From a bacterium (GTDB lineage Bacteria; Patescibacteriota; Minisyncoccia; Minisyncoccales; CG1-02-41-26), in contig JAUSHZ010000007.1 of the NCBI GenBank assembly GCA_030648255.1, forward strand, positions 24,404-88,403: a DNA stretch of 64,000 nt. The letters run 5' to 3'. A model generated the notes under the pieces. The model did not search any database and was not told the origin of the DNA. It saw only the letters and a list, made by a program, of their open reading frames with translations. Shown piece by piece: positions 1,278 to 49,784 of the stretch. A program made the translations under genes and the position numbers. Every line of letters starts with the position of its first letter. The stretch's first letter is position 1.

Positions 1278-1489
1278 GTTAGAAGCTGTGTGAATTTTTA
1301 AATTTAATGATTTAAAAATTCATTACAGATTCTTACACCCCGTTAAGTGCGAGCGATGAGCGAGCTACTTAACTGGGGTTTGTTTGTATTCTTATCCACC
1401 CCAGTGAAGTAAAATTTGAGTACAAATTCACTTCACGGGGTTAAGCGATTGTATTTGTTCAGCCTCGGCTTCGGCTTCGCAAACAATCG
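1278..1489 (-). repeat. Intercistronic structured element, copy 1 (modules E1 / M-A / S4)
   Basis: Fills rpsK stop (1490) to rpsD ATG (1277). mRNA sense ends GCTTCTAAC-ATG. Has AT palindrome tgaatttttaaat/atttaaaaattca, hairpins ccccgttaagt/acttaactgggg and ccccagtgaagt/acttcacgggg, and stop-proximal stem gcgattgt/acaatcgc. Confidence 0.9.
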
Positions 1490-1945: not shown

Positions 1946-2136
1946 GTTAGTATTCGTTAATGAATGAAGTGGCTTTGCCACGAATGAATTTACGAAGACT
2001 TACACCCTGTGGAGTAGAAATTTGCTCTGCAAATTTCTGTTTTAAATTTTTAGTAAAAAATTTAAAACTACTCCACGGGGTAAATTCGTCGTAAGCTCTG
2101 GCTTCGCCTGCTGGCTTTCCCTCGCTAACGGCTCAT
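1946..2136 (-). repeat. Intercistronic structured element, copy 2 (E4 / M-B / S3-like)
   Basis: rpsM stop to rpsK ATG. Closing stem caccctgtggagtag/ctactccacggggta encloses two AT hairpins. Stop-proximal stem aaattcgtcgt/acggctcattt abuts the TAA. Confidence 0.9.
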
Positions 2137-2526: not shown

Positions 2527-2751
2527 GTTAGAAGCTGTGTGAATTTTCAAATTTAATGATTTGAAAATTCATTACAGATTCTTACACCCCGTTAAGTGCG
2601 AGCGATTAGCAAGCTACTTAACTGGGGTTTGTTTATATTTCTATCCACACCCCAGTGAAGTAGAATTTAATTTCATTAAATTCACTTCACGGGGTAAATT
2701 CCGCCAACCGCTCAAACTTCGGCTCATCGCCTCGTTTTCGCGGGGCGTCAT
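2527..2751 (-). repeat. Intercistronic structured element, copy 3 (E1 / M-A / S2)
   Basis: rpmJ stop to rpsM ATG. Same E1 and M-A hairpins as copy 1. S2 arm ..cttcggctcatcgcctcgttttcgcggggcgtcattta ends in the rpmJ stop codon. Confidence 0.9.
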
Positions 2752-2868: not shown

Positions 2869-3085
2869 GTTAGAAGCTGTGTGAATTTTTAAATTTAATG
2901 ATTTGAAAATTCATTACAGATTCTTACACCCCGTTAAGTGCGAGCGATTAGCAAGCTACTTAACTGGGGTTTGTTTGTATTTCTATCCACACCCCAGTGA
3001 AGTAGAATTTGAGTACAAATTCACTTCACGGGGTAAATTCCGCTTGCCAATCGCGCTTCGCCTGCTGGCTCGCACTCTTGGAGCG
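2869..3085 (-). repeat. Intercistronic structured element, copy 4 (E1 / M-A / S1)
   Basis: infA stop to rpmJ ATG. S1 arm aaattccgcttgccaatcgcgcttcgcctgctggctcgcactcttggagcgtcat + tta stop. Confidence 0.9.
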
Positions 3086-4738: not shown

Positions 4739-4866
4739 GTTAGAAATTCTTAATTGAGTGGCGAATTTATGAGCCGTGAAATTTAGAAGTTTTTAGTCCT
4801 CCGTAAATTCAAACTTCGCCTACTGACTCGTTTTCATTAACGGATTACTTATTCTACCACAAAAAT
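4739..4866 (-). repeat. Intercistronic structured element, copy 5 (short form: E3 / no M / S3-like)
   Basis: alaS stop to the ATG of the 459 aa gene. Ends AATTTCTAAC-ATG. E3 stem ttcttaatt/aatttagaa and S stem agtcctccgt/acggattact are present, but the middle domain is missing. Confidence 0.8.
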
Positions 4867-6615
4867 TTACTGCTGCAAAATCGCTTTAATTCGCCGAACG
4901 CCAGCTGAACTGGCTTCTTCTTTAATAATTTTAAATACGCCCAAAGTTTTGGTATTTTCAACATGAGGACCAGCGCAAATTTCTTTAGAGAACTCTCCTG
5001 CGGAATAAACTTTCACTTTTTCTGGATACTTGTGGCCAAAAACTCCTGTGGCCCCTTCATCAAATGCTTTTTGAGTTTCCATTTCACGGCAAACAACAGG
5101 CAACTCCTTTTTTATTTGCTCGTTAACTAAGTCCTCCACTTTTTTTATTTCTTCTGGGGTTAATTTTCTTTCAAAAGAAAAATCAAACCTTATTCTTTCA
5201 GAAGTAATATTGCTACCTTTTTGCTGAACATCCCCTCCCAAAACTTGCCTTAAAGCAGCCAGCATTAAATGAGTGGCTGTGTGGTATTTTGTGGTTTGTT
5301 CAGAATCATCAGCTAAGCCGGATTTAAACTGCCCAGCACTGGCTGTTCTAGACAACTCTTGATGCTTTTTTAATTCCTCTTGAAAACCTTTTTCGTCAAT
5401 TTCCTTGTCTTTCTCCTTGGCAATCTCTCTTGTTATTTCTAAAGGAAATCCGTAAGTTTGATAAAGATTAAAAACCTCTTCCCCAGAAATAATTGGCATA
5501 TTTATTTTTTCAAATTCTTTTAATCCCCTGTCTAAACAAGTTAAAAATCTTTCTTCTTCTTTTTGTAGTTCATTTAAAATAAACTCCTGATTTTCTTTCA
5601 GTTCTGGGTAAACATTTTCATACATAGCAATAATAACTTTAGCAATCTCGCCCGTAAAAGCGCTCTCAATACCCAACAGCTTGCCGTATCTTATTGCCCG
5701 CCTTATTAATCTCCGCAACACATATCCTCTTTCTGTGTTTGACGGAACAAGCCCATCGGCTAATATAAAAACGCTGGCTTTTATATGGTCTGCAATAATG
5801 CGAAAAGATTTTGTATTTTCCTCATATTGCTTTCCCGAAATTTCTGAAATTCTATTTATTATCGGAGTAAACAGCTCTGTTTCATAAACATTACTTTTTC
5901 CTTGCAAAACCATTGTAGTTCTCTCCAGGCCCATGCCAGTGTCCACATTTTTCTGCGATAATTCTTCAAACTTTCCGTCTGCAGTTTTGTTATACTGCAT
6001 AAAAACATTGTTCCAAATCTCCACCCATTTTTTATCGCTTGGGTCAAATTTTTCAGGAACTTCCCCCTCTCCAACCCAATAAAACATTTCTGTGTCTGGG
6101 CCGCAGGGCCCTGTACTTCCTGCTGGGCCCCACCAATTATCCTCACGGCCCAAATAAGCAATCCGCTCTGGCTTAACCCCCAAACCTTGCCAAAGATTAA
6201 AGGCCCCCTCGTCTTTTGGTATATTATTTTCTGTTTCACCTTCAAAAACCGTAAAAGCTAACTTTTCCAAAGGAATATTTAATTCTTTAGTTAAAAATTC
6301 AAAGCTCCATTCAATGGCCTCTTTTTTAAAATAATCCCCCAAACTCCAATTACCAAGCATTTCAAAAAATGTTCCATGGGTGTTGTCCCCCACATCATCA
6401 ATATCACCCGTTCTAATACATTTTTGGCTATTGCAAAGCCGTTTACCTAGGGGATGGTTTTCCCCAAGCAAATAAGGCACCAATGGGTGCATACCTGCTG
6501 TGGTAAATAAAACTGTTGGGTCGTTTTCTGGAATTAAAGGGGCAGATGGTATTCTTTTGTGTCCCTTGTTCTCAAAAAACTTTAAATATTTTTCTCGTAT
6601 TTCTTTAGCTGTCAT
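4867..6615 (-). CDS. alaS: Alanyl-tRNA synthetase, short form
   Basis: 582 aa; class II AlaRS N-terminus (FTTAGMHP, WNNVFMQY) and editing-domain HTATHLM plus CAGPHV. Lacks the C-terminal domain of ~870 aa enzymes. Confidence 0.9.
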   Translation of the reverse strand: MTAKEIREKYLKFFENKGHKRIPSAPLIPENDPTVLFTTAGMHPLVPYLLGENHPLGKRLCNSQKCIRTGDIDDVGDNTHGTFFEMLGNWSLGDYFKKEAIEWSFEFLTKELNIPLEKLAFTVFEGETENNIPKDEGAFNLWQGLGVKPERIAYLGREDNWWGPAGSTGPCGPDTEMFYWVGEGEVPEKFDPSDKKWVEIWNNVFMQYNKTADGKFEELSQKNVDTGMGLERTTMVLQGKSNVYETELFTPIINRISEISGKQYEENTKSFRIIADHIKASVFILADGLVPSNTERGYVLRRLIRRAIRYGKLLGIESAFTGEIAKVIIAMYENVYPELKENQEFILNELQKEEERFLTCLDRGLKEFEKINMPIISGEEVFNLYQTYGFPLEITREIAKEKDKEIDEKGFQEELKKHQELSRTASAGQFKSGLADDSEQTTKYHTATHLMLAALRQVLGGDVQQKGSNITSERIRFDFSFERKLTPEEIKKVEDLVNEQIKKELPVVCREMETQKAFDEGATGVFGHKYPEKVKVYSAGEFSKEICAGPHVENTKTLGVFKIIKEEASSAGVRRIKAILQQ

Positions 6616-8368: not shown

Positions 8369-8438
8369 ATTTACTTATTATAGCAAAATCTTTAAATAAA
8401 CAAAAAGGCAGGGTTAAATTCCCCCGCCAAATCATAGA

Positions 8439-8573
8439 TCAAAAGTCCTGATTTGCTCTTGATTCCATAATTTCTTTGGATCTATCAATCATGCGAATCC
8501 TCTCCAGATATTTTTTAAGTAAACGCTCACGACATGTCTCTCTTTTTTTTAAAGTTCTTCTTCTTTTGTTCAT
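8439..8573 (-). CDS. Possible small basic protein (44 aa)
   Basis: MNKRRRTLKKRETCRERLLKKYLERIRMIDRS..; its ATG is preceded by AAGGAGGT, one of the few strong SD sites in the window. No family recognised. Confidence 0.35.
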   Translation of the reverse strand: MNKRRRTLKKRETCRERLLKKYLERIRMIDRSKEIMESRANQDF

Positions 8574-8584
8574 TTGAAACCTCC

Positions 8585-9337
8585 TTATTTTGTAAGAATT
8601 TCTGCTCCTTTTCTTGTAATGGCTATGGTGTGCTCGAAATGGCAAGATAGGGAGCCGTCGGCTGTTTTATAGCCGAAGCCGTCATTAGCTTTTCTTAATT
8701 TCCAATTACCCATTGTTACCATTGGCTCAAGGCAAAAAACCATGCCAACCTCAATCTTTTCACCAGAGTTTCGCTTGCCATAGTTAGAAATTTTTGGGTC
8801 TTCATGCAATGCCTTGCCAATACCATGCCCGCACAAATCCCTAACCACATTAAACCCTTGGTATTCAACAAACCTTTGCACAATATTGCCAATATCTCCA
8901 AAAGTATTACCCGGCCTTGCTTTAGCAATGGCTAGTTTCAACGCTTTTTGCGTGGCTTTAATAAGCCGAATCTTTTCCGAATCCTCTGCTTCAGGCTTGC
9001 CCACCAGAGTAGAAAAAGCGTAATCAGAAAAATAATCTTGATATTTAATTCCTAAATCCAAACAAAGCAAATCGCCCTGCTTTAGAATATAACCATCGGG
9101 CACCCCATGCACCACCATATCATTAATAGAAATACAAGAAACACAAGGAAATCCTTCGTAATCTTTAAAGGCTGGTTCGGCCCTATATTCTAAAATAAGA
9201 TTTTCACACGCTCTGTCTAATTCTTTAGAAATAATGCCCGGAGCTATCATTGGCTTTATTTTTTCAATAATTTCAGCCAAAATTTTTCCAGCCTCTCGCA
9301 TTATTTTTATCTCATTTTCTGTTTTAATAATTATCAT
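8585..9337 (-). CDS. map: Methionine aminopeptidase type I
   Basis: 250 aa; pita-bread metal-ligand blocks (LDLGIKYQDYFSD, CGHGIG, FCLEP, FEHT). Confidence 0.92.
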   Translation of the reverse strand: MIIIKTENEIKIMREAGKILAEIIEKIKPMIAPGIISKELDRACENLILEYRAEPAFKDYEGFPCVSCISINDMVVHGVPDGYILKQGDLLCLDLGIKYQDYFSDYAFSTLVGKPEAEDSEKIRLIKATQKALKLAIAKARPGNTFGDIGNIVQRFVEYQGFNVVRDLCGHGIGKALHEDPKISNYGKRNSGEKIEVGMVFCLEPMVTMGNWKLRKANDGFGYKTADGSLSCHFEHTIAITRKGAEILTK

Positions 9338-10001: not shown

Positions 10002-10023
10002 ATTATTTAATGATAACAGAATT

Positions 10024-10045
10024 TAAAAAAGGGGCAAAGCCCCTA
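10024..10045 (-). terminator. Terminator-like hairpin inside the adk 5' leader
   Basis: Minus sense AGGGGCUUUGCCCCU followed by UUUUUU, 25 nt before the adk ATG and just downstream of a promoter. Confidence 0.5.
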
Positions 10046-10239: not shown

Positions 10240-10524
10240 TTATCGAAAAACTACAAAATACCCACAGTTGACCCCATAGGGTTGATCAGTTGAATCGTCT
10301 GCTATAGAAATAAGTGTAAGGTTAGAGTGATTGGCAATAAATTTAGATAAAGAATTACCAAATGCCGCTTGAGTGGCAGCGAAATAATATACACCATTCC
10401 CATAATTAACTGGGGAAATAGTTTCTGTGGAATTAACTTTTGTTTCTTTGCCCGCATTACTACCACAGCCACAAATTATAAGAACAAGAACCATTAGAGA
10501 TATCAATATCGCTATTTTTCTCAT
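10240..10524 (-). CDS. Small lipoprotein
   Basis: 94 aa; signal peptide ending LIICGC (lipobox-like). GAGGAG SD 8 nt upstream. Inserted between secY and adk. Confidence 0.7.
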   Translation of the reverse strand: MRKIAILISLMVLVLIICGCGSNAGKETKVNSTETISPVNYGNGVYYFAATQAAFGNSLSKFIANHSNLTLISIADDSTDQPYGVNCGYFVVFR

Positions 10525-10681
10525 TTTTTAACTCCTCTTAGATAATTTACCTAAAGCCAGTTTAAAGTATTCACGACAACACAAATATTACTACTTAACC
10601 ACAAAAAATCAAGCCATGCTGTCAAAACCCGATTTTGGGCTCCCTAAAAATCGGATTTCAAGGGATCCTTGATTGAAATAA

Positions 10682-12221: not shown

Positions 12222-12409
12222 GTTAGTAATTCTTAATTGAACGGCGAATTTATGAGCTGTGAAATTTAGAATTTCTTACACCCCGTGGAGTAGAAATTTG
12301 CTCTGCAAATTTCTATTTTAAATTTTTTACTAAAAATTTAAAATTACTCCACAGGGTAAATTCCGCTTGCCAATCGCGCTTCGATTACTCAGCACTCTTG
12401 GAGCGTCAT
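12222..12409 (-). repeat. Intercistronic structured element, copy 6 (E3 / M-B / S1 variant)
   Basis: rplO stop to secY ATG. Ends ATTACTAAC-ATG. Closing stem caccccgtggagtag/ttactccacagggta. Confidence 0.9.
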
Positions 12410-12841: not shown

Positions 12842-13007
12842 GTTAGTAATTCTTAATTGAACTGCGAACGATTAGTGAGCTGTGAAATTTAGAAGTACTT
12901 ACACCCTGTGGAGTAGAAATTTGCTCTGCAAATTTCTGTTTTAAATTTTTAGTAAAAAATTTAAAACTACTCCACGGGGTAAATTCCGCCTTCCACTCAA
13001 ACTTCGG
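12842..13007 (-). repeat. Intercistronic structured element, copy 7 (E3 / M-B / S2; S2 continues into the rpsE 3' end to about 13040)
   Basis: rpsE stop to rplO ATG. S2 homology (..cttcggctaatcgcctcgttttcgtggggcgtcattta) extends 33 nt into the rpsE coding sequence. Confidence 0.9.
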
Positions 13008-13526
13008 CTAATCGCCTCGTTTTCGTGGGGCGTCATTTAACTGTTGTAAGGCCGCTACTGTTGCCCGGGCGATATTTAATTTATTTCTTGATCTTGACAA
13101 TAACTTTGATGATATATTCCTAATTCCAGCTAAACTGCAAATAACTCTTACCTGGCCGCCAGCCACCAACCCCCTACCTTTTGCCTGAGGCCTTAACAAA
13201 ACCCTTGCTGGGCCATACTTTGCTGTAACCTCATGGGGAATTGTTTCCTCAAACATTGGAACAGAAATTAAATTCTTCTTGGCCAACCGAGTTGATTTTT
13301 CAACAGCAATTGCCACATCAGGCCCCTTGGCCACACCTAATCCAATTTTTCCCTTTTTATTGCCAACCACCACAACTGCCCTAAACCTCATTTGCTTTCC
13401 TCCCTTTGTTACTCTTGTAACTCTGGCTAAATCTAAAACCACCGAGTCGAACTCATCTTTCGGTTTTGCTGGAAATTGACCTCTTCTTTCTCTATTAAAT
13501 TTTCCTTGTTGTTGCTGTTGTTCCAT
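13008..13526 (-). CDS. rpsE: 30S ribosomal protein S5
   Basis: 172 aa; VTRVTKGGKQMRFRAVVVVGN..GLGVAKG and S5 C-terminal domain. The last ~10 codons ([10 protein letters not shown]) are encoded by element sequence. Confidence 0.93.
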   Translation of the reverse strand: MEQQQQQGKFNRERRGQFPAKPKDEFDSVVLDLARVTRVTKGGKQMRFRAVVVVGNKKGKIGLGVAKGPDVAIAVEKSTRLAKKNLISVPMFEETIPHEVTAKYGPARVLLRPQAKGRGLVAGGQVRVICSLAGIRNISSKLLSRSRNKLNIARATVAALQQLNDAPRKRGD

Positions 13527-13720
13527 GTTAGTAATTCTTAATTGAACGGCGAACGATTAGTGAGCTGTGAAGTTTAGAAGTACTTACACCCTGTGGAGTA
13601 GAAATTTGCTCTGCAAATTTCTGTTTTAAATTTTTTACTAAAAATTTAAAACTACTCCACGGGGTAAATTCCGCTTGCCAATCGTGCCTCACCTGCTGGC
13701 TCGCACTCTTGGAGCGTCAT
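13527..13720 (-). repeat. Intercistronic structured element, copy 8 (E3 / M-B / S1)
   Basis: rplR stop to rpsE ATG; same modules as copies 6/7, with S1 arm ending ggagcgtcat+tta. Confidence 0.9.
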
Positions 13721-14065: not shown

Positions 14066-14258
14066 GTTAGTAGTCGTTAATGAATGAGTGGCGATTAGCC
14101 ACGAGTGAATTTACGAATTCTTACACCCTGTGGAGTAGAAATTTGCTCTGCAAATTTCTGTTTCAAATTTTTAGCAAAAAATTTGAAACTACACCACGGG
14201 GTAAGTCCTCCGTAAGCTCTGGCTTCGGCTAATCGCCTTGCCATCGCTAACGGATTAC
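14066..14258 (-). repeat. Intercistronic structured element, copy 9 (E4 / M-B / S3)
   Basis: rplF stop to rplR ATG. E4 apex ggcgattagcc (14090-14100) is the exact reverse complement of S3 apex ggctaatcgcc (14227-14237). Confidence 0.9.
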
Positions 14259-14819: not shown

Positions 14820-15021
14820 GTTAGAAATTGTGTGAGTTTTCAAGCTATAATCTTTTTTATGGCTTGAAAACTCATTACAAGTTCTTACACCCTGTGGAGT
14901 AGAAATTTGCTCCGCAAATTTCTGTTTTAAATTTTTTACTAAAAATTTAAAACTACTCCACGGGGTAAGGTATCCGTAAGCTCGGGCTTCGCCTGCTGGC
15001 TCGCCCTCGCTAACGGCTACC
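14820..15021 (-). repeat. Intercistronic structured element, copy 10 (E2 / M-B / S3)
   Basis: rpsH stop to rplF ATG. E2 hairpin gagttttcaagc..gcttgaaaactc. S3 stem aaggtatccgt/acggctacctt carries compensatory changes relative to copy 9. Confidence 0.9.
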
Positions 15022-15411
15022 TTACCACACTTCCACCATTAATTCACCTCCGACTTTATCTTTTCTGGCTTGCTTATCTGTTAATAAACCATTGGTGGTT
15101 GAAACAATAGATAAGCCATAGCCACTTCTTACCTTTGAAATCTCGTCTGCTTTTTTATAAATTCTTTGCCCTGGCTTTGAAATCCTTTTAAACCCAGAGA
15201 CGGCTGGCATCTTTTCATTATATTTTAACTGTATTTTTATAATTTGAAACGGCTTTTTCCCTTTTTTCTTGCAATCCAAAATAAGCCCCTCTGCTTTTAA
15301 AATTTCAGCAATTGAGTATCTTAGTTTTGAAAAAGGAACATCGGTTGTTTTATGGAAAACAACTTGAGCGTTCCTTATTCTATTAAACATGTCTGTTATT
15401 GGATCGGTCAT
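15022..15411 (-). CDS. rpsH: 30S ribosomal protein S8
   Basis: MTDPITDMFNRIRNAQ.. is a typical S8. Start after CTTCTAAT-ATG (15409-15411). Confidence 0.93.
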   Translation of the reverse strand: MTDPITDMFNRIRNAQVVFHKTTDVPFSKLRYSIAEILKAEGLILDCKKKGKKPFQIIKIQLKYNEKMPAVSGFKRISKPGQRIYKKADEISKVRSGYGLSIVSTTNGLLTDKQARKDKVGGELMVEVW

Positions 15412-15612
15412 ATTAGAAGTTGTGTGAGTTTTCAAGCTATAATTTTTTTTATGGCTTGAAAACTCATTACAAATTCTTATACCCCGTGGAGTAGAAATTT
15501 GCTCTGCAAATTTCTGTTTTAAATTTTTTACTAAAAATTTAAAACTACTCCACAGGGTAAGTCCTCCGTAAGCTCTGGCTCGGCTGTTGCCTCGCCATAG
15601 CTAACGGATTAC
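15412..15612 (-). repeat. Intercistronic structured element, copy 11 (E2 / M-B / S3)
   Basis: rpsN stop to rpsH ATG. Only copy ending CTAAT-ATG instead of CTAAC-ATG. Confidence 0.9.
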
Positions 15613-15798: not shown

Positions 15799-15974
15799 GT
15801 TAGTGATTCTTAATTGAACGGCGAGCGATTAGCGAGCTGTGAAATTTAGAATGACTTACACCCCGTTAAGTGCGAGCGATTAGCGAGCTACTTAACTGGG
15901 GTTTCGTTGTATTCTTACCCCACCCCAGTGAAGTAGAATTTGAGTACAAATTCACTTCACGGGGTAAGGCTCTG
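15799..15974 (-). repeat. Intercistronic structured element, copy 12 (E3 / M-A / S5)
   Basis: rplE stop to rpsN ATG. Ends ATCACTAAC-ATG. The motif cgagcgattagcgagc occurs in both the E3 and M-A loops. Confidence 0.9.
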
Positions 15975-16577
15975 CTACCGCTCAACCTTCGCCTTCGGCT
16001 CGGCTTCACGGGCAGAAGCCTTAAATGGAAACCCCAGCAATCTTAATAATGCAGCGCCTTCTTCCTTTGTTTTGGCTGTTGTTGAAATTGTTACTTCTAA
16101 TCCAAAAATGCCTTTCTCTTTTTCAACTTTCAATTCAGGAAATGGAACATACTCTTTAAATCCAACTGTAATATCTCCTTGGCTTGTCATAGATTTCTCT
16201 TCAACGCCCCTAAAGTCTCTAGACCTTGGCAAAACAACCCAAATCAACTTCTCTAAAAAATCATACATTCTTTTCTTTCTTAAGGTGCAGCTGGCTCCAA
16301 CCGCCATACCTTCTCTTAGCTTGAAAGCAGCAATTGATTTTTTTGCTTTATTTAGAGATGGTTTTTGCCCGGTAATAGCGGCTATTGATTGAGCAATATA
16401 TTCTTCCGCTTTTTCTCTCTCACTGGCGCTTTTTCCAATAACCATTTTGCCAAAACCGCAATTAACAACAATCTTCTTTATTTTTGGCACAGCCATAACA
16501 GAACTATACCCGAATTTCTTCGTCATTTCAGGAATAACTATTTTATTGTATTGCTCTTGTAATTTCATATTTTTCAT
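15975..16577 (-). CDS. rplE: 50S ribosomal protein L5
   Basis: MKNMKLQEQYNKIVIPEMTKKFGYSSVMAVPKIKKIVVNCG.. Start is ambiguous (16577 or 16568). The ORF-track N-terminal 19 aa lie over an upstream hairpin. Confidence 0.9.
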   Translation of the reverse strand: MKNMKLQEQYNKIVIPEMTKKFGYSSVMAVPKIKKIVVNCGFGKMVIGKSASEREKAEEYIAQSIAAITGQKPSLNKAKKSIAAFKLREGMAVGASCTLRKKRMYDFLEKLIWVVLPRSRDFRGVEEKSMTSQGDITVGFKEYVPFPELKVEKEKGIFGLEVTISTTAKTKEEGAALLRLLGFPFKASAREAEPKAKVER

Positions 16578-16586
16578 GAAGCTGTC

Positions 16587-16641
16587 GAAGCTGTTGAAAC
16601 CGAGCTTCTGGAAGCCCTTGAAGCTCGGTTTCAACAGCTTC
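16587..16641 (-). promoter_or_regulatory. 22-bp perfect hairpin just upstream of rplE
   Basis: gaagctgttgaaaccgagcttc - 11 nt - gaagctcggtttcaacagcttc, between the rplX stop (16656) and the rplE start. It replaces the modular element at this junction. Confidence 0.7.
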
Positions 16642-16655
16642 AGGCTCCATAGCTT

Positions 16656-16961: not shown

Positions 16962-17177
16962 GTTAGAAATTGTGTGAGTTTTCAAGCTATAATCTTTTTT
17001 ATGGCTTGAAAACTCATTACAAGTTCTTACACCCTGTTAAGTGCGAGCGATGAGCGAGCTACTTAACTGGGGTTTGTTTATATTATTCTCATACCCCAGT
17101 GAAGTAGAATTTGATTACAAATTCACTTCACGGGGTTAAGCGATTGTAATGCTCGGCTATCGCCTCGCAGACAATCG
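16962..17177 (-). repeat. Intercistronic structured element, copy 13 (E2 / M-A / S4)
   Basis: rplN stop to rplX ATG. Combines the E2 hairpin of copies 10/11/15 with the M-A and S4 modules of copy 1. Confidence 0.9.
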
Positions 17178-18375: not shown

Positions 18376-18566
18376 GTTAGAAGCTGTGTGAATTTTCAAA
18401 TTTAATGATTTGAAAATTCATTACAGATTCTTACACCCCGTGGAGTAGAAATTTGCTCTGCAAATTTCTGTTTTAAATTTTTAGTAAAAAATTTAAAACT
18501 ACTCCACAGGGTAAATTCCGCTTGCCAATCACGCTCGCCTGCTGGCTCGCGCTCTTGGAGCGTCAT
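18376..18566 (-). repeat. Intercistronic structured element, copy 14 (E1 / M-B / S1)
   Basis: rpsC stop to rplP ATG; E1 AT palindrome combined with the M-B three-way junction. Confidence 0.9.
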
Positions 18567-19576: not shown

Positions 19577-19776
19577 GTTAGAAATTGTGTGAGTTTTCAA
19601 GCTATATTTCCTTATGGCTTGAAAACTCATTACAAGTTCTTACACCCCGTGGAGTAGAAATTTGCTCCGCAAATTTCTGTTTTAAATTTTTAGTAAAAAA
19701 TTTAAAACTACTCCACAGGGTAAATTCCGCTTGCCAATCGCGCTTCGCCTGCTGGCTCGCGCTCTTGGAGCGTCAT
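19577..19776 (-). repeat. Intercistronic structured element, copy 15 (E2 / M-B / S1)
   Basis: rpsS stop to rplV ATG. Confidence 0.9.
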
Positions 19777-22641: not shown

Positions 22642-22941
22642 GTTAGAAGCTGTGTGAATTTTTAAATTTAATGATTTAAAAATTCATTACAGATTCTTAC
22701 ACCCTGTGAAGTAAAATTTGAGTACAAATTTTAATTTTAAATTTTTTACTAAAAATTTAAAATTACTTCACGGGGTTAATAATCCGTAAGCTCAAGCTTC
22801 GCCTGCTGGCTCGCTCTCGCTAACGAATTATTAAAAACACGAGGCATTAACTCCCCGCATTTTTGTTAAAAACTCAAGGGTTAAATTCTTCCCACTTTCA
22901 AGGGTTAAACTAATTAAGTTTTACCTTGAACTCTATATTAA
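22642..22941 (-). repeat. Intercistronic structured element, copy 16 (E1 / hybrid M / S3-like, about 22642-22838) plus a unique ~100 nt spacer
   Basis: rpsJ stop to rplC ATG. Closing stem caccctgtgaagtaa/ttacttcacggggtt and S stem ttaataatccgt/acgaattattaa. The spacer 22839-22941 holds two copies of caagggttaaa. Confidence 0.85.
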
Positions 22942-27550: not shown

Positions 27551-27814
27551 GTTAGTAATCGTTAATGAATGAGTGGCGATTAGCCACGAGTGAATTTACG
27601 AGGACTTACACCCTGTGAAGTAAGATTTGAGGTCTCTTCCAAAAAGTGTATTCTCTTAAACTTTTAACTATTTTTCTCTCGCATCAATTGTTAATAATCG
27701 TACCCTCAAATCTTAATTTTAAATTTTTTACTAAAAATTTAAAATTACTTCACGGGGTAAATTCCGCCAACCGCTCAAACTTCGGCTCATCGCCTCGTTT
27801 TTGCTGGGCGTCAT
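27551..27814 (-). repeat. Intercistronic structured element, copy 17 (E4 / hybrid M with ~85 nt extra arm / S2)
   Basis: rpsL stop to rpsG ATG. Extra arm closed by aagatttgagg/ccctcaaatctt. The S2 arm ends gggcgtcat+tta. Confidence 0.88.
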
Positions 27815-28366: not shown

Positions 28367-29317
28367 TTACTTACACTGCTGGGGTTTCACAGAGGTGCAG
28401 GTCAATGTTCCGTCAAGTGCTGTGCACCAAGTAATTCCTGCTTTGTCTGTATCTCCAATTCCCAAACAGCCAGTCAACGCTCCACTTCCTATCATAACTG
28501 TTGTCGAAGCAGAAGACGACACCTCCAAATTATACGCCGGCGTTGTCGTCCCAATCCCGATATTACCCTTCAATATTGTTTTCGTAATACTAGTATTTCC
28601 TAAAGTTACAGAATTGCTGCCATTGCCTATAGCACTCGCTCCTATTACTATTTCATTGGTATTCCCGTCTGCTCCAGCCATTGCGTTATAACCCTCATAA
28701 ACAGAGTTACTGGAAGTTGTATTGGCGGTAACACCATCGGCAATATAAACACCAGCCTTCGTGCCATTGGCGGTGTTTTGATAACCAGTATTATAGTAGA
28801 GAGCCTGCATACCGTTAGCGGTATTTTGATAACCAGTAGTGTTTGAGAAAAGAGCCTGCATACCGTTAGCGGTATTGTAATCGCCAGCAGTATTAGAATA
28901 AAGGGCATACACGCCATTAGCTGTATTTGTATATCCTGTAGTGTTAGAGTAGAGAGATCTATAACCAACAGCAGTATTATAACCCGCTTCATTTGTACTG
29001 GCTGTTGAACTTGCCATCCCCGCTTGATAGCCAACAAAAGTATTGTATAAGGATACATCATAATGACCTGCCTGGTAGCCAATATTAGTTTTAAAGCCAA
29101 TATTATTAAAATCAATTAGATCAGTAACCGCTATACCAAGAGAGGTTAGATATGTAGTAGTAGTTGTAGCTAATGTGCTAGTACTAAAAACATCTAGAGC
29201 TCCCCCAATAGAAACATTATTACCAATTGTGGTAACAGCTTGGGCGACTATAACTACGCAAAAAACCGTTGTTATGACGCTCACTACTACAGTAAAAATT
29301 TGCTTTTTATTATTCAT
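28367..29317 (-). CDS. Secreted/surface repeat protein (tail-fibre-like or adhesin-head-like repeats)
   Basis: 316 aa; N-terminal signal anchor and about 10 tandem 14-15 aa units (GYxNTANGxxALYSNT). The C-terminal KGNIGIGTTTPAYNLEV motif is recalled from fibre-like proteins. Confidence 0.7.
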   Translation of the reverse strand: MNNKKQIFTVVVSVITTVFCVVIVAQAVTTIGNNVSIGGALDVFSTSTLATTTTTYLTSLGIAVTDLIDFNNIGFKTNIGYQAGHYDVSLYNTFVGYQAGMASSTASTNEAGYNTAVGYRSLYSNTTGYTNTANGVYALYSNTAGDYNTANGMQALFSNTTGYQNTANGMQALYYNTGYQNTANGTKAGVYIADGVTANTTSSNSVYEGYNAMAGADGNTNEIVIGASAIGNGSNSVTLGNTSITKTILKGNIGIGTTTPAYNLEVSSSASTTVMIGSGALTGCLGIGDTDKAGITWCTALDGTLTCTSVKPQQCK

Positions 29318-30052: not shown

Positions 30053-30340
30053 AAAGTTATCATAATTTATTCTAATTCTAACATAAGGATTTTTACAAAA
30101 CAAAACCGCCCTAATAAAATCAAAAGCGGAATTTTGTTTAGTATTTTATTTTTTTATTTCGCTGGGAAGGCTGGAATATTTGGTCTTATCTGGATTGACT
30201 GGGCGGTGATGCTGCCGTCATAGCTAGCGATTTTTCATCACCTTTCAAGTTGTGGAAATATCATACCATTTTTCACCCAAAATTCAAACCCTAAAATACA
30301 ACAACGTTCGGAGTTCCGAACGCTGTCTAATATGCAAAGC

Positions 30341-30436
30341 TCATTTAATATTATGATTTTTGCCAAAAAATTGGCTAAAAAACACAACACACAAAACAAG
30401 AATACTAGCAATTAAAGTACTATAATTAATGGTCAT
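30341..30436 (-). CDS. Candidate small hydrophobic peptide (31 aa)
   Basis: Not in ORF track. AAAAGGAGGCGTAAATA-ATG, peptide MTINYSTLIASILVLCVVFFSQFFGKNHNIK. Followed by the hairpin cagcgttcgga/tccgaacgttg plus a U-run. Confidence 0.45.
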   Translation of the reverse strand: MTINYSTLIASILVLCVVFFSQFFGKNHNIK

Positions 30437-30518
30437 TATTTACGCCTCCTTTTAAGTTAAAGAGCCCTTACTTAAGACACAAAAGAAATTGCTATACTTT
30501 AGCAACTTTTTTTGTGGC

Positions 30519-48956: not shown

Positions 48957-49115
48957 ATTTTTTTATTATATTATAATTATATTAGAGCTGGCAATAATAG
49001 CTTTTAGGAGACCACGAGGGTACCCTCCGCGCATGTGGAGGTCTTAATACTTGTGGTAAATCCTAGGAGACGCCACTCTATAAAAATCATCTCTTTTGAG
49101 GTGTTTTTTATTATT

Positions 49116-49784
49116 TTATTTTTTGTTAAATTCTTTCCAATAATCTTTAAATAATTCTTGTGAAGCAATAATATTACTGTGTAAAATTTCATAAAACTTT
49201 TTTCCAAATGGTCGGTTAGTGTAATAGCGATATAATGCCCCGCAAATCCAGTCGGCAATTTGTATATTAGAATCAGTTGCAGAATCAACAGTATTTACAT
49301 AAACGCTCGCTTTTTTAGATAGTTGCAAGATAATATGCAAACGCAAGTTTTCTTTAAATTCTTTTTGTGAAACTTTTTTCAAACTTCTATGGTCTAAATT
49401 AAGAATAATTTGTGGCTCTGCGTTAGGAAAAATAATATCAAGAGTTTTAGCTATTATCTCAGTATAAAGACGGCCCGACTCAACAGCGCTTTTTCTTCTA
49501 AATTCCAAAGGAATATTTTCTGATTTTAGAAAAGAATAAAAAATACGGATATTTTGTTGAGCTAAATATAATAGTGTTTCAGCGCGCAATTTATCAGTTA
49601 AACGAGCATCGGTGAACTTAACTTCCCTGCGGAATTTAAGTTTTTTGTTAGCAAATTTTGCGTCTTGCCACTTGCGAAACGCTTTGGCAGTGGTTCGTTG
49701 ATTGCCAATAATAAACCCGCCGACTATGAAAAGTTTTTCTTTATCACCTTGAAAATTACCAGATTCATCAATAAAAATATACAT
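49116..49784 (-). CDS. DUF3800 family protein
   Basis: 222 aa; MYIFIDESGNF N-terminus and C-terminal ..IQIADWICGA. Confidence 0.7.
   Translation of the reverse strand: MYIFIDESGNFQGDKEKLFIVGGFIIGNQRTTAKAFRKWQDAKFANKKLKFRREVKFTDARLTDKLRAETLLYLAQQNIRIFYSFLKSENIPLEFRRKSAVESGRLYTEIIAKTLDIIFPNAEPQIILNLDHRSLKKVSQKEFKENLRLHIILQLSKKASVYVNTVDSATDSNIQIADWICGALYRYYTNRPFGKKFYEILHSNIIASQELFKDYWKEFNKK

Follow-up and report, generated by a model that had tools for sequence, protein, structure and literature searches.

Several described systems bear on how a start codon can be reached without a Shine-Dalgarno (SD) sequence paired to the anti-SD (aSD) of 16S rRNA, or on how the spacers between cotranscribed genes come to be filled. 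Leaderless mRNAs, as found for example in mycobacteria, have the AUG at their 5' extremity, and the known leaderless ends come from transcription starts. Hairpins cleaved by RNase III lie between cistrons of the phage T7 early mRNAs and of E. coli operons, the T7 sites leaving an SD-containing leader on the downstream product. The Correia, ERIC, REP/BIME, RUP and Rickettsia palindromic elements occur in both orientations and at variable distances from genes, usually with inverted termini or target duplications, and the known ribosomal protein (r-protein) leaders occur one per operon, are specific to the regulator protein and mimic its site in rRNA. MazF reportedly generates leaderless mRNAs, as described by Vesper and coworkers in 2011, a claim said to have been disputed later. 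SD-independent initiation has been described in Flavobacterium johnsoniae (Baez et al. 2019, PMC6847099); in Parcubacteria, only 48% of the 16S genes contain the aSD motif, SD helices are judged not to form in part of the group, and the SD-contacting helix h26 is reported as conserved in the aSD-lacking members, where its role is unknown (Tsurumaki et al. 2022, PMC9297842). Here we analyze a window of 64 kb (64,000 nucleotides (nt) of contig JAUSHZ010000007.1, to which all coordinates refer unless a relative is named) in which the starts of genes show no enrichment of SD pairing over background and 17 of them lie behind copies of a structured element of ~190 nt, hereafter the cassette, that ends at the start codon.

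The SD score was the free energy (dG) of the best duplex between the canonical 16S tail CACCUCCUUU, which may not be the host's own, and positions -20 to -1 of 80 starts in the window, with dG <= -4.5 kcal/mol taken as SD-like and <= -8 as strong. None of the 17 starts behind the cassette is SD-like, their best duplexes lying between -0.4 and +2.6 kcal/mol; among the 63 other starts, 9 (14%) score <= -4.5 and two <= -8, against 22% and 4.8%, respectively, of 1,527 ATG triplets that are not starts. The two classes of starts do not differ significantly at the -4.5 threshold (Fisher p = 0.19), and the other starts are, if anything, SD-poorer than the background ATGs (odds ratio 0.58, p = 0.16). 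The hexamer AGGAGG is found 24 times in the window, with 23.2 occurrences expected. Directly 5' of the non-cassette starts the sequence is A-rich and G-poor: A accounts for 59-65% at positions -6 to -4 and U for 68% at -1, and G is depleted at -15 to -5 (13% versus 21% overall). The starts thus combine a lack of aSD-complementary enrichment over background with the base composition of SD-independent initiation. The initial annotation of this stretch, made from the sequence alone, had noted that the tightly coupled r-protein genes, tuf, fusA, adk and alaS lack an SD and that the r-protein operon does not use one; duplex scoring bears out both observations. The contrast that it drew between the genes behind the cassette and accessory genes with textbook SDs dissolves in the comparison of the two classes with each other and with the background.

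The same condition is found in the relatives of the organism. Besides the window, the material consisted of ~57 kb from the three closest relatives, fetched via SecY (L081, L082 and L083; SecY of L081 is 90% and that of L082 76% identical to the window protein), and of 147 kb of metagenome loci. Given that the proteins nearest to the window SecY (88-92% identity) belong to metagenome-assembled genomes labelled Candidatus Pacebacteria and the farther ones to genomes labelled Nealsonbacteria, Gribaldobacteria or Parcubacteria group, the organism can be assigned on the basis of its sequence to a Parcubacteria-type lineage of Patescibacteria (Candidate Phyla Radiation (CPR); NCBI phylum Minisyncoccota). 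The exact sequence of the window SecY matched no record. A scan of genome contigs with uL6 returned relatives with at most 51% identity, none of which carries the cassette, and these loci then served as controls for SD usage. Homology served to map the starts of as many as 27 conserved genes in 83 loci, and these starts were scored as above. In loci from Actinobacteria, Firmicutes, Proteobacteria, Chloroflexi, WWE3 and true Saccharimonadales, 65-100% of the starts are SD-like; the corresponding range is 0-29% in Bacteroidota and Chlorobi, apart from one Chryseobacterium outlier (45%), and 0-20% in many Patescibacteria loci. The score thus discriminates cleanly between positive and negative controls. 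The three relatives have 8% (L081), 16% (L082) and 17% (L083) of SD-like starts by homology mapping and, with the supplied gene calls, 4/31, 3/22 and 8/31, respectively, which is the background level. Given that L083, in which a normal tight r-protein operon is wholly devoid of the cassette, is SD-poor as well, SD-lessness is independent of the cassette. At the 141 non-cassette starts of the window and the three relatives, only A/T-rich words are enriched (TAAA, ATAA, ATAAT, TAAAA); GGAG is found 4 times versus 10.7 expected, and no enriched G-rich k-mer hints at a variant aSD. Initiation is SD-independent at essentially all genes throughout the lineage, and the missing SD behind the cassette is therefore the local norm rather than a property of the cassette.

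In its lack of SD enrichment at starts the lineage resembles F. johnsoniae, and the Bacteroidota control loci are equally low. The aSD is retained in Bacteroidota and often lost in Parcubacteria. The lineage differs in that U dominates position -1 here, and a structured cassette flush with the AUG is not described in the abstract of that study. The aSD-lacking Parcubacteria belong to the same broad group, and the lack of SD helices predicted for them fits our mRNA-side result; that study (PMC9297842) covered rRNA only and described no mRNA elements, whereas the window is compared from the mRNA side alone.

The cassette consists of hairpin A (~60 nt), three-way junction B (~75 nt) and hairpin C (58-69 nt), which follow one another without linkers. 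The copy before rplF has a predicted minimum free energy (MFE) of -97 kcal/mol (z = -13), and hairpin C folds with dG of -6 to -25 and has conserved mismatches at positions 3 and 8. In the consensus fold, the CUAAC that precedes the AUG forms the 3' side of the stem at the base of hairpin C, with GUAAG as its partner, so that the AUG is modelled at the foot of the helix, on the open side of a junction of three helices. Among 48 distinct copies, collected from the window, a relative and metagenomes, 42 have G-C as the pair adjoining the AUG, 5 have A-U and one has G.U, so that none is mismatched there; the A.A mismatch at the third position of the stem is invariant, as are U-A, A-U and G-C positions near the base of the hairpin. 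In the 23 distinct sequences of the basal stem, 96% of the cells are paired, versus 20-60% when the partner is slid, and 5 of the 10 pairs show compensatory changes. In the six copies that read CUAAU-AUG and accordingly have no ACA before the start codon, the partner is altered to match in five (A-U) and the sixth has G.U; given that these copies keep the pairing and lose the ACA, selection acts on the pair rather than on the ACA. Moreover, because CUAAC is paired, it is unavailable for pairing with rRNA unless the stem opens.

These observations bear on two ideas raised in the initial annotation. The CUAAC had been considered, together with the hairpin, as a possible initiation signal; that it acts as a free single-stranded one is contradicted by its compensated pairing with GUAAG. 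The neighboring ACA had been raised, as a speculation, as a target of an ACA-specific endoribonuclease; an ACA directly upstream of the AUG in most copies is indeed what the cassette shares with MazF-generated leaderless mRNAs, but an invariant single-stranded ACA at the start codon is not found in the 48 copies, and its AC lies within the covarying stem. Of the YYCTAAC-ATG motif, said to be present without an SD at all 17 starts, the lack of an SD and, in 16 of the 17 copies, the CTAAC stand (the rpsH copy, at 15411, has CTAAT-ATG); the two pyrimidines are found in only 9 of the 17, the remaining copies reading TACTAAC or CACTAAC. Two other candidate features were rejected: an identity over 8 nt of the hairpin A loop (GCCAGCAG) to the 530 loop of 16S rRNA, because this loop is not conserved among copies, and a promoter within the 3' end of the cassette, because the hexamers 7 nt before the ATG (CACAAT, AAGAAT, AACGAT, CACAGC) are inconsistent and lie in the stem.

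The 3' end of the cassette is tied to start codons. The pattern used to scan metagenomes described the stem of module B only, leaving module C and the ATG unconstrained, and yielded 30 further loci. A start codon follows in 48 of the 48 distinct copies, and the gene always has the orientation of the cassette; 39 copies have no nucleotide between CUAAY and ATG, six have 2 nt, one has 4 nt and two have 9 nt. Every nhmmer profile match that reaches the 3' end of the cassette model stops at a start codon. The 5' edge adjoins an upstream stop codon or follows a TATAAT box ~7 nt away, and the cassette therefore fills the whole leader or intercistronic spacer. In the window, the 17 starts, all on the minus strand, are those of 15 r-protein genes, secY and a gene for a 459-aa protein (orf459); all matches lie within 1275-27812 and none in the other 36 kb. 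Over all copies, the downstream genes include those for S18, S16, S21, L10, L18, S5, S8, S10, L3 and L2 (11 of the 26 metagenome copies precede r-protein genes) and, among non-ribosomal genes, those for DnaJ, an Hsp20-like protein, a pilin, a response regulator, a proton pyrophosphatase and membrane proteins. The tie of the cassette to start codons is real and, as yet, without explanation.

Comparison of close relatives indicates that junctions gain, lose and exchange the cassette, which nonetheless stays flush with the start codon. In L081 it occupies only five junctions (S10-L3, L22-S3, S14-S8, L6-L18 and S13-S11), and six junctions that are filled in the window (S5-L15, L15-SecY, S8-L6, L14-L24, S11-S4 and L36-S13) have spacers of 2-8 nt; the converse, junctions with the cassette in L081 but not in the window, is found as well. 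Yet another set is occupied in a further locus, L108, and the same junction can hold different module variants in different genomes. Multiple copies that vary between close relatives are a hallmark of repeats of the REP type and of miniature inverted-repeat transposable elements (MITEs). Because the same genes are translated with or without it, the cassette is not an obligatory initiation signal. Thus, of the idea raised in the initial annotation that the hairpin together with CUAAC might provide the initiation signal, the tie to starts stands, whereas the free CUAAC and an obligatory role do not; of the two outcomes that the annotation had named as speaking against this idea, SD-less starts are indeed equally common with and without the cassette, whereas the motif, far from lacking positional enrichment, is maximally enriched at starts.

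Other fillers occur in the relatives. In L082 (123-10000), unrelated AT-rich palindromic fillers of 70-250 nt, which are not flush with the ATG, are present at ~15 r-protein junctions. A second repeat family of L081 (14114-14244 and 18609-18860, in the galT-tpi and infA-L36 spacers) has two termini that pair with each other and spans from directly after a stop codon to directly before a GTG start. A general rule that a helix ends at position -1 in all long spacers of the window, L081 and L082 was rejected: the unpaired tail of the MFE structures does not differ from that of shuffled sequences, and L082 disobeys the rule.

Ordinary starts of this lineage appear to be marked by an A/U-rich, G-poor context (A at -6 to -3, U at -1), by a -10 box 6-8 nt upstream and by stop-start spacers of 1-5 nt. 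Nine hexamers resembling the -10 box lie at a distance of 5-9 nt from the ATG, where 2.2 would be expected; the promoter scan recovered the sites of adk and orf459 (Table 1), and strong -10 boxes 6-8 nt before the ATG are also seen at the operon-first genes near 48965-48970 and 52167-52172. This spacing suggests leaderless transcripts, which may be widespread. The site before orf459 can be compared with an empty counterpart: in L081 (16828-16853), TGTATAAT is followed by 7 nt and the ATG of the gene for a 440-aa protein, without the cassette, and at the orthologous site of the window (4739-4879, minus strand) TGGTAGAAT is followed by 7 nt, a partial cassette (modules A and C) and the ATG. The likeness to leaderless mRNAs thus lies in the -10 boxes 6-8 nt from the ATG of operon-first genes, and an AUG at the 5' extremity is what cleavage at the foot of the cassette would recreate; known leaderless ends differ in arising from transcription starts and not from processing of polycistronic RNA, and for this lineage they are predicted here from sequence alone.

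The initial annotation considered an aSD probably present, given a few well-formed SD-like motifs. The five motifs cited (Table 1) are all there. However, SD-like matches are no commoner at starts than at random ATGs, and 76 of the 1,606 window ATGs reach dG <= -8 by chance, so that five motifs spotted by eye say little. They do not exceed the chance number, and they precede orphan or accessory ORFs (open reading frames). The strongest, AAGGAGGT, lies 5 nt from the ATG (8571-8573) of orf44, which is downstream of it; the predicted product has no Pfam family and matches among 5.8e9 proteins only itself, on a contig identical to the window, and L081, the closest relative, has no such ORF in the corresponding spacer. 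The 94-aa lipoprotein-like ORF likewise has no Pfam family and is absent from the SecY-adk spacer of L081. The second strong motif, AAAAGGAGGC, precedes orf31, whose predicted product resembles type I toxins or other small membrane peptides; a terminator-like hairpin lies downstream of this ORF (region 30300-30452, minus strand). Taken together with the 48% of Parcubacteria 16S genes that have the aSD motif (PMC9297842), this leaves the presence of an aSD unsupported, yet not disproved; no rRNA was found in the window or in 18 cassette-bearing metagenome loci, which were searched for a direct reading of the aSD.

The reading that we favor, with a probability only slightly above even (about 0.55), is that initiation is SD-independent throughout the lineage and that a mobile structured cassette, locked to start codons and perhaps cleaved, has been added to it. 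If the cassette were cut at the foot of hairpin C, the downstream cistron would become a leaderless mRNA or one with a leader of 2-3 nt, and a structured 3' end would remain to protect the upstream mRNA; operon-first genes already appear leaderless, and cleavage would give internal cistrons the same form. An insert of 190 nt should break leaderless arrangements and those with spacers of 1-5 nt unless an equivalent state is restored, for which cleavage would be the simplest means. The A.A and position-8 mismatches of hairpin C may be compared with the internal loops that direct RNase III in T7 sites. The cassette would share with RNase III sites long imperfect intercistronic hairpins with internal mismatches, hairpin C providing such a helix (58-69 nt) in the predicted fold, and a cleavage that leaves a 3' hairpin on the upstream product; it differs in that the helix ends at -1 and belongs to a multi-copy, mobile cassette of three modules, and in that cleavage is putative.

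Several points weigh against this reading. The putative cleavage step, taken by itself, is rather more probably wrong than right. The sense and antisense strands fold equally well, with no RNA-specific asymmetry, so that the fold could serve transposition of single-stranded DNA instead of a function in RNA. A ribozyme was rejected, the junctions having no unpaired core and no known ribozyme core being visible, and at the gathering score Rfam matches only a tRNA and DUF3800-V in the window, leaving the cassette unmatched. Genes with the fillers of L082 are presumably still translated, and internal SD-less initiation therefore needs no special cassette. Two of the 11 strongest SD-like motifs in the 1,606 ATG contexts belong to orf44 and orf31, and these two could work if an aSD persists. 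Finally, the sample is small (64 kb of the window, ~57 kb of relatives and 147 kb of metagenome loci), and the start codons were picked by the analyst, with ATG preferred.

A bolder possibility, which we consider unlikely but deserving of attention, is that the cassette is a portable start module that replaces SD/aSD pairing, being either clipped off or docked by its basal helix in the platform cleft, so that its spread in the r-protein operons would be adaptive and not selfish. The cassette might also act without any cleavage, as a compact insulating leader that keeps upstream RNA off the initiation region and offers a sharp boundary between double- and single-stranded RNA at the AUG; the ribosome would take the first AUG past the helix, which would act as a pseudo-5' end or dock at the site of the SD helix. 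In addition to the AUG lying flush with a covarying helix, the predicted unpaired probabilities agree with such a boundary (0.30 behind the cassette versus 0.56 at other genes for positions -12 to -1, and 0.60 versus 0.52 for +1 to +15), as do two unrelated hairpins that end at starts (in the rplE spacer and, before a GTG, in the second family of L081) and the conservation of h26 in aSD-less Parcubacteria (PMC9297842). However, a conflict with the E site and the exit channel is to be expected for a helix at -1 unless the basal pairs open, and the L082 fillers present no such boundary. We also know of no experimental precedent, and regard an insulating role as quite unlikely.

The cassette could instead be a selfish non-autonomous mobile element, similar to MITEs or IS200/IS605, that inserts just 5' of the ATG and is neutral for translation because ribosomes melt the fold; copies would survive only at starts since other insertions disrupt genes of a compact genome. 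Its presence or absence at a given junction differs already at 90% SecY identity, modules are shuffled among copies, so that one junction holds different variants, the empty site and its filled counterpart coincide exactly at the ATG, neither strand folds better than the other, and assemblies break at the copies. Hairpins at both ends, an exact ATG junction and no duplication recall IS200/IS605, but 9 of the 48 junctions are not directly at the ATG, and neither a cognate nor any other transposase is encoded in the 64-kb window. No consistent terminal inverted repeats, target duplications or second orientation are seen in the copies inspected. An ATG often found after the upstream stop codon was considered as a target duplication and rejected, given that its position and sequence vary (ATG, ATA, GTA) and that it pairs within hairpin A. 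Correia, ERIC and REP-type repeats are similarly multi-copy, hairpin-forming, variable between strains and located within operons, and some alter mRNA processing or stability; the cassette differs from them in its uniform orientation relative to the gene (48/48), its flush position at the start, the exactness with which it spans the distance between a stop codon or transcription start and the ATG, and the covarying pair at -1. Selfishness also sits poorly with the bias toward highly expressed genes (the 28-kb r-protein cluster holds 17 copies and the other 36 kb none; 11/26 metagenome copies before r-protein genes) and with the difference between the junctions, the 3' one being exact and the 5' one able to overrun stop codons. 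On balance we judge a purely selfish origin improbable. A shared autoregulatory operator, bound by an r-protein or another factor and coordinating many r-proteins, would explain the enrichment in r-protein operons, the three-way junction reminiscent of protein-binding sites in rRNA and the invariant U-A, A.A, A-U and G-C at the foot of hairpin C. It is very improbable, given that genes for DnaJ, a pilin, a regulator and membrane proteins also lie behind the cassette and that close relatives lack it at the corresponding junctions; unlike the known protein-specific leaders, of which an operon has one, a single type of cassette precedes 15 r-protein genes together with non-ribosomal ones and matches no Rfam leader. 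The least chance of all we give to the scheme built on the initial annotation, in which a functional aSD serves accessory genes and the r-protein operon uses the hairpin and a single-stranded CUAAC, perhaps with MazF-type cleavage: two very strong, well-spaced SD-like motifs do precede small intergenic ORFs and ACA does adjoin the AUG in most copies, but no gene class is enriched in SDs, orf44 is an orphan, CUAAC is paired (with 6/48 copies CUAAU without ACA, 5 of them compensated), and the aSD motif is often absent from the group (PMC9297842).

The features of the window are collected in Table 1. The str-S10-spc-alpha ribosomal supercluster runs from rpsL (28231) down to rpsD (642), and the minus strand bears most of the genes; uL30 is missing from the r-protein set, and uS19 and uL23 have extensions. 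The genes for uS5 and uL5 no longer have their ancestral stop codons and read into module A (13008-13040 and 15975-16020, minus strand), so that the cassette provides the stop and a tail (NDAPRKRGD in uS5, ASAREAEPKAKVER in uL5). Between rpsJ and the cassette on the rplC side, a terminator-like hairpin with a T-run (22826-22941, minus strand), conserved in L081 and L108, may be an attenuator. Upstream of rpsL, 51-nt tandem repeats (28739-28939) lie within the gene for a 316-aa Thr/Asn/Gly-rich repeat protein (28367-29317), and a match to the Rfam family DUF3800-V RNA (48983-49080, plus strand, 41.9 bits) adjoins a DUF3800-like gene on the other strand (49116-49784). For the same organism, a public assembly of short reads (Logan SRR13727527, L114) matches the window with 100% identity along 5,827 nt and ends at positions corresponding to 4824 and 10650, near cassette copies or repeats; such repeats therefore fragment assemblies of the r-protein region.

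Table 1. Cassette copies, promoter-like sites, SD-like motifs and associated reading frames in the 64 kb window
Feature	Position	Strand	Remarks
Cassette, rpsK stop to rpsD ATG (1277)	1278..1489	-	
Cassette, rpsM stop to rpsK ATG (1945)	1946..2136	-	
Cassette, rpmJ stop to rpsM ATG (2526)	2527..2751	-	
Cassette, infA stop to rpmJ ATG (2868)	2869..3085	-	
Partial cassette (modules A and C, without B) before orf459 ATG (4738)	4739..4843	-	Behind promoter-like site
Promoter-like TTTGCA-17-TAGAAT with TG	4851..4879	-	-10 ends 7 nt before first base of cassette
Extended -10 box TGCTATAAT	8377..8385	-	8 nt before galT ATG (8368), leaderless-type; conserved in L081
orf44, 44-aa basic orphan ORF	8439..8573	-	Behind AAGGAGGT
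SD-like octamer AAGGAGGT	8579..8586	-	Overlaps map stop codon (8585-8587); dG -12.3
Promoter-like site, -10 TATCAT with TG	10010..10037	-	Ends 8 nt before adk ATG (10001)
94-aa lipoprotein-like ORF, ATG 10524	10240..10545	-	GAGGAG upstream, dG -8.5
Cassette, rplO stop to secY ATG (12221)	12222..12409	-	
Cassette before rplO (start 12841)	12842..13040	-	5' part translated as uS5 C-terminal tail
Cassette, rplR stop to rpsE ATG (13526)	13527..13720	-	
Cassette, rplF stop to rplR ATG (14065)	14066..14258	-	
Cassette, rpsH stop to rplF ATG (14819)	14820..15021	-	
Cassette before rpsH (start 15411)	15412..15611	-	CUAAU variant, compensating GUAUAAG
Cassette before rpsN (start 15798)	15799..16020	-	5' part translated as last 14 codons of uL5
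Unrelated near-perfect hairpin of 78 nt, fills rplX-rplE spacer	16578..16655	-	dG -47.2; ATG-flush, unpaired tail 0
Cassette, duplicated B-type, rplN stop to rplX ATG (16961)	16962..17177	-	
Cassette, rpsC stop to rplP ATG (18375)	18376..18566	-	
Cassette, rpsS stop to rplV ATG (19576)	19577..19776	-	
Cassette before rplC (start 22641)	22642..22825	-	Terminator-like hairpin farther upstream
Cassette, rpsL stop to rpsG ATG (27550)	27551..27814	-	~130-nt insert in module B (27600-27730)
orf31, 31-aa hydrophobic ORF, ATG 30436	30341..30452	-	AAAAGGAGGC upstream, dG -11.8
98-aa ORF, ATG 56119	55823..56135	-	Weak SD-like AAGGAAG, dG -6.5
Receiver-domain gene, ATG 61674	61294..61683	-	Weak SD-like GAGGGAA, dG -6.1

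The SD-less state is ordinary for this lineage, and the window adds mRNA-side evidence to the published rRNA-side observation. The notable part is the cassette and not the missing SD: an Rfam 15 search by E-value with four copies returned only chance matches to miRNA hairpins, and no description of the element was found in the literature. How start codons are found without SD pairing is an open question in much of the bacterial tree, Bacteroidota, Cyanobacteria and CPR among it. The cassette, which is structured, recombines between sites, places its last pair beside the AUG and precedes the most highly expressed genes, is a concrete portable object for testing whether structure or processing may take the place of SD pairing. 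Should it be merely selfish, it would show that SD-less operons tolerate structured inserts of 200 nt between tightly coupled cistrons.

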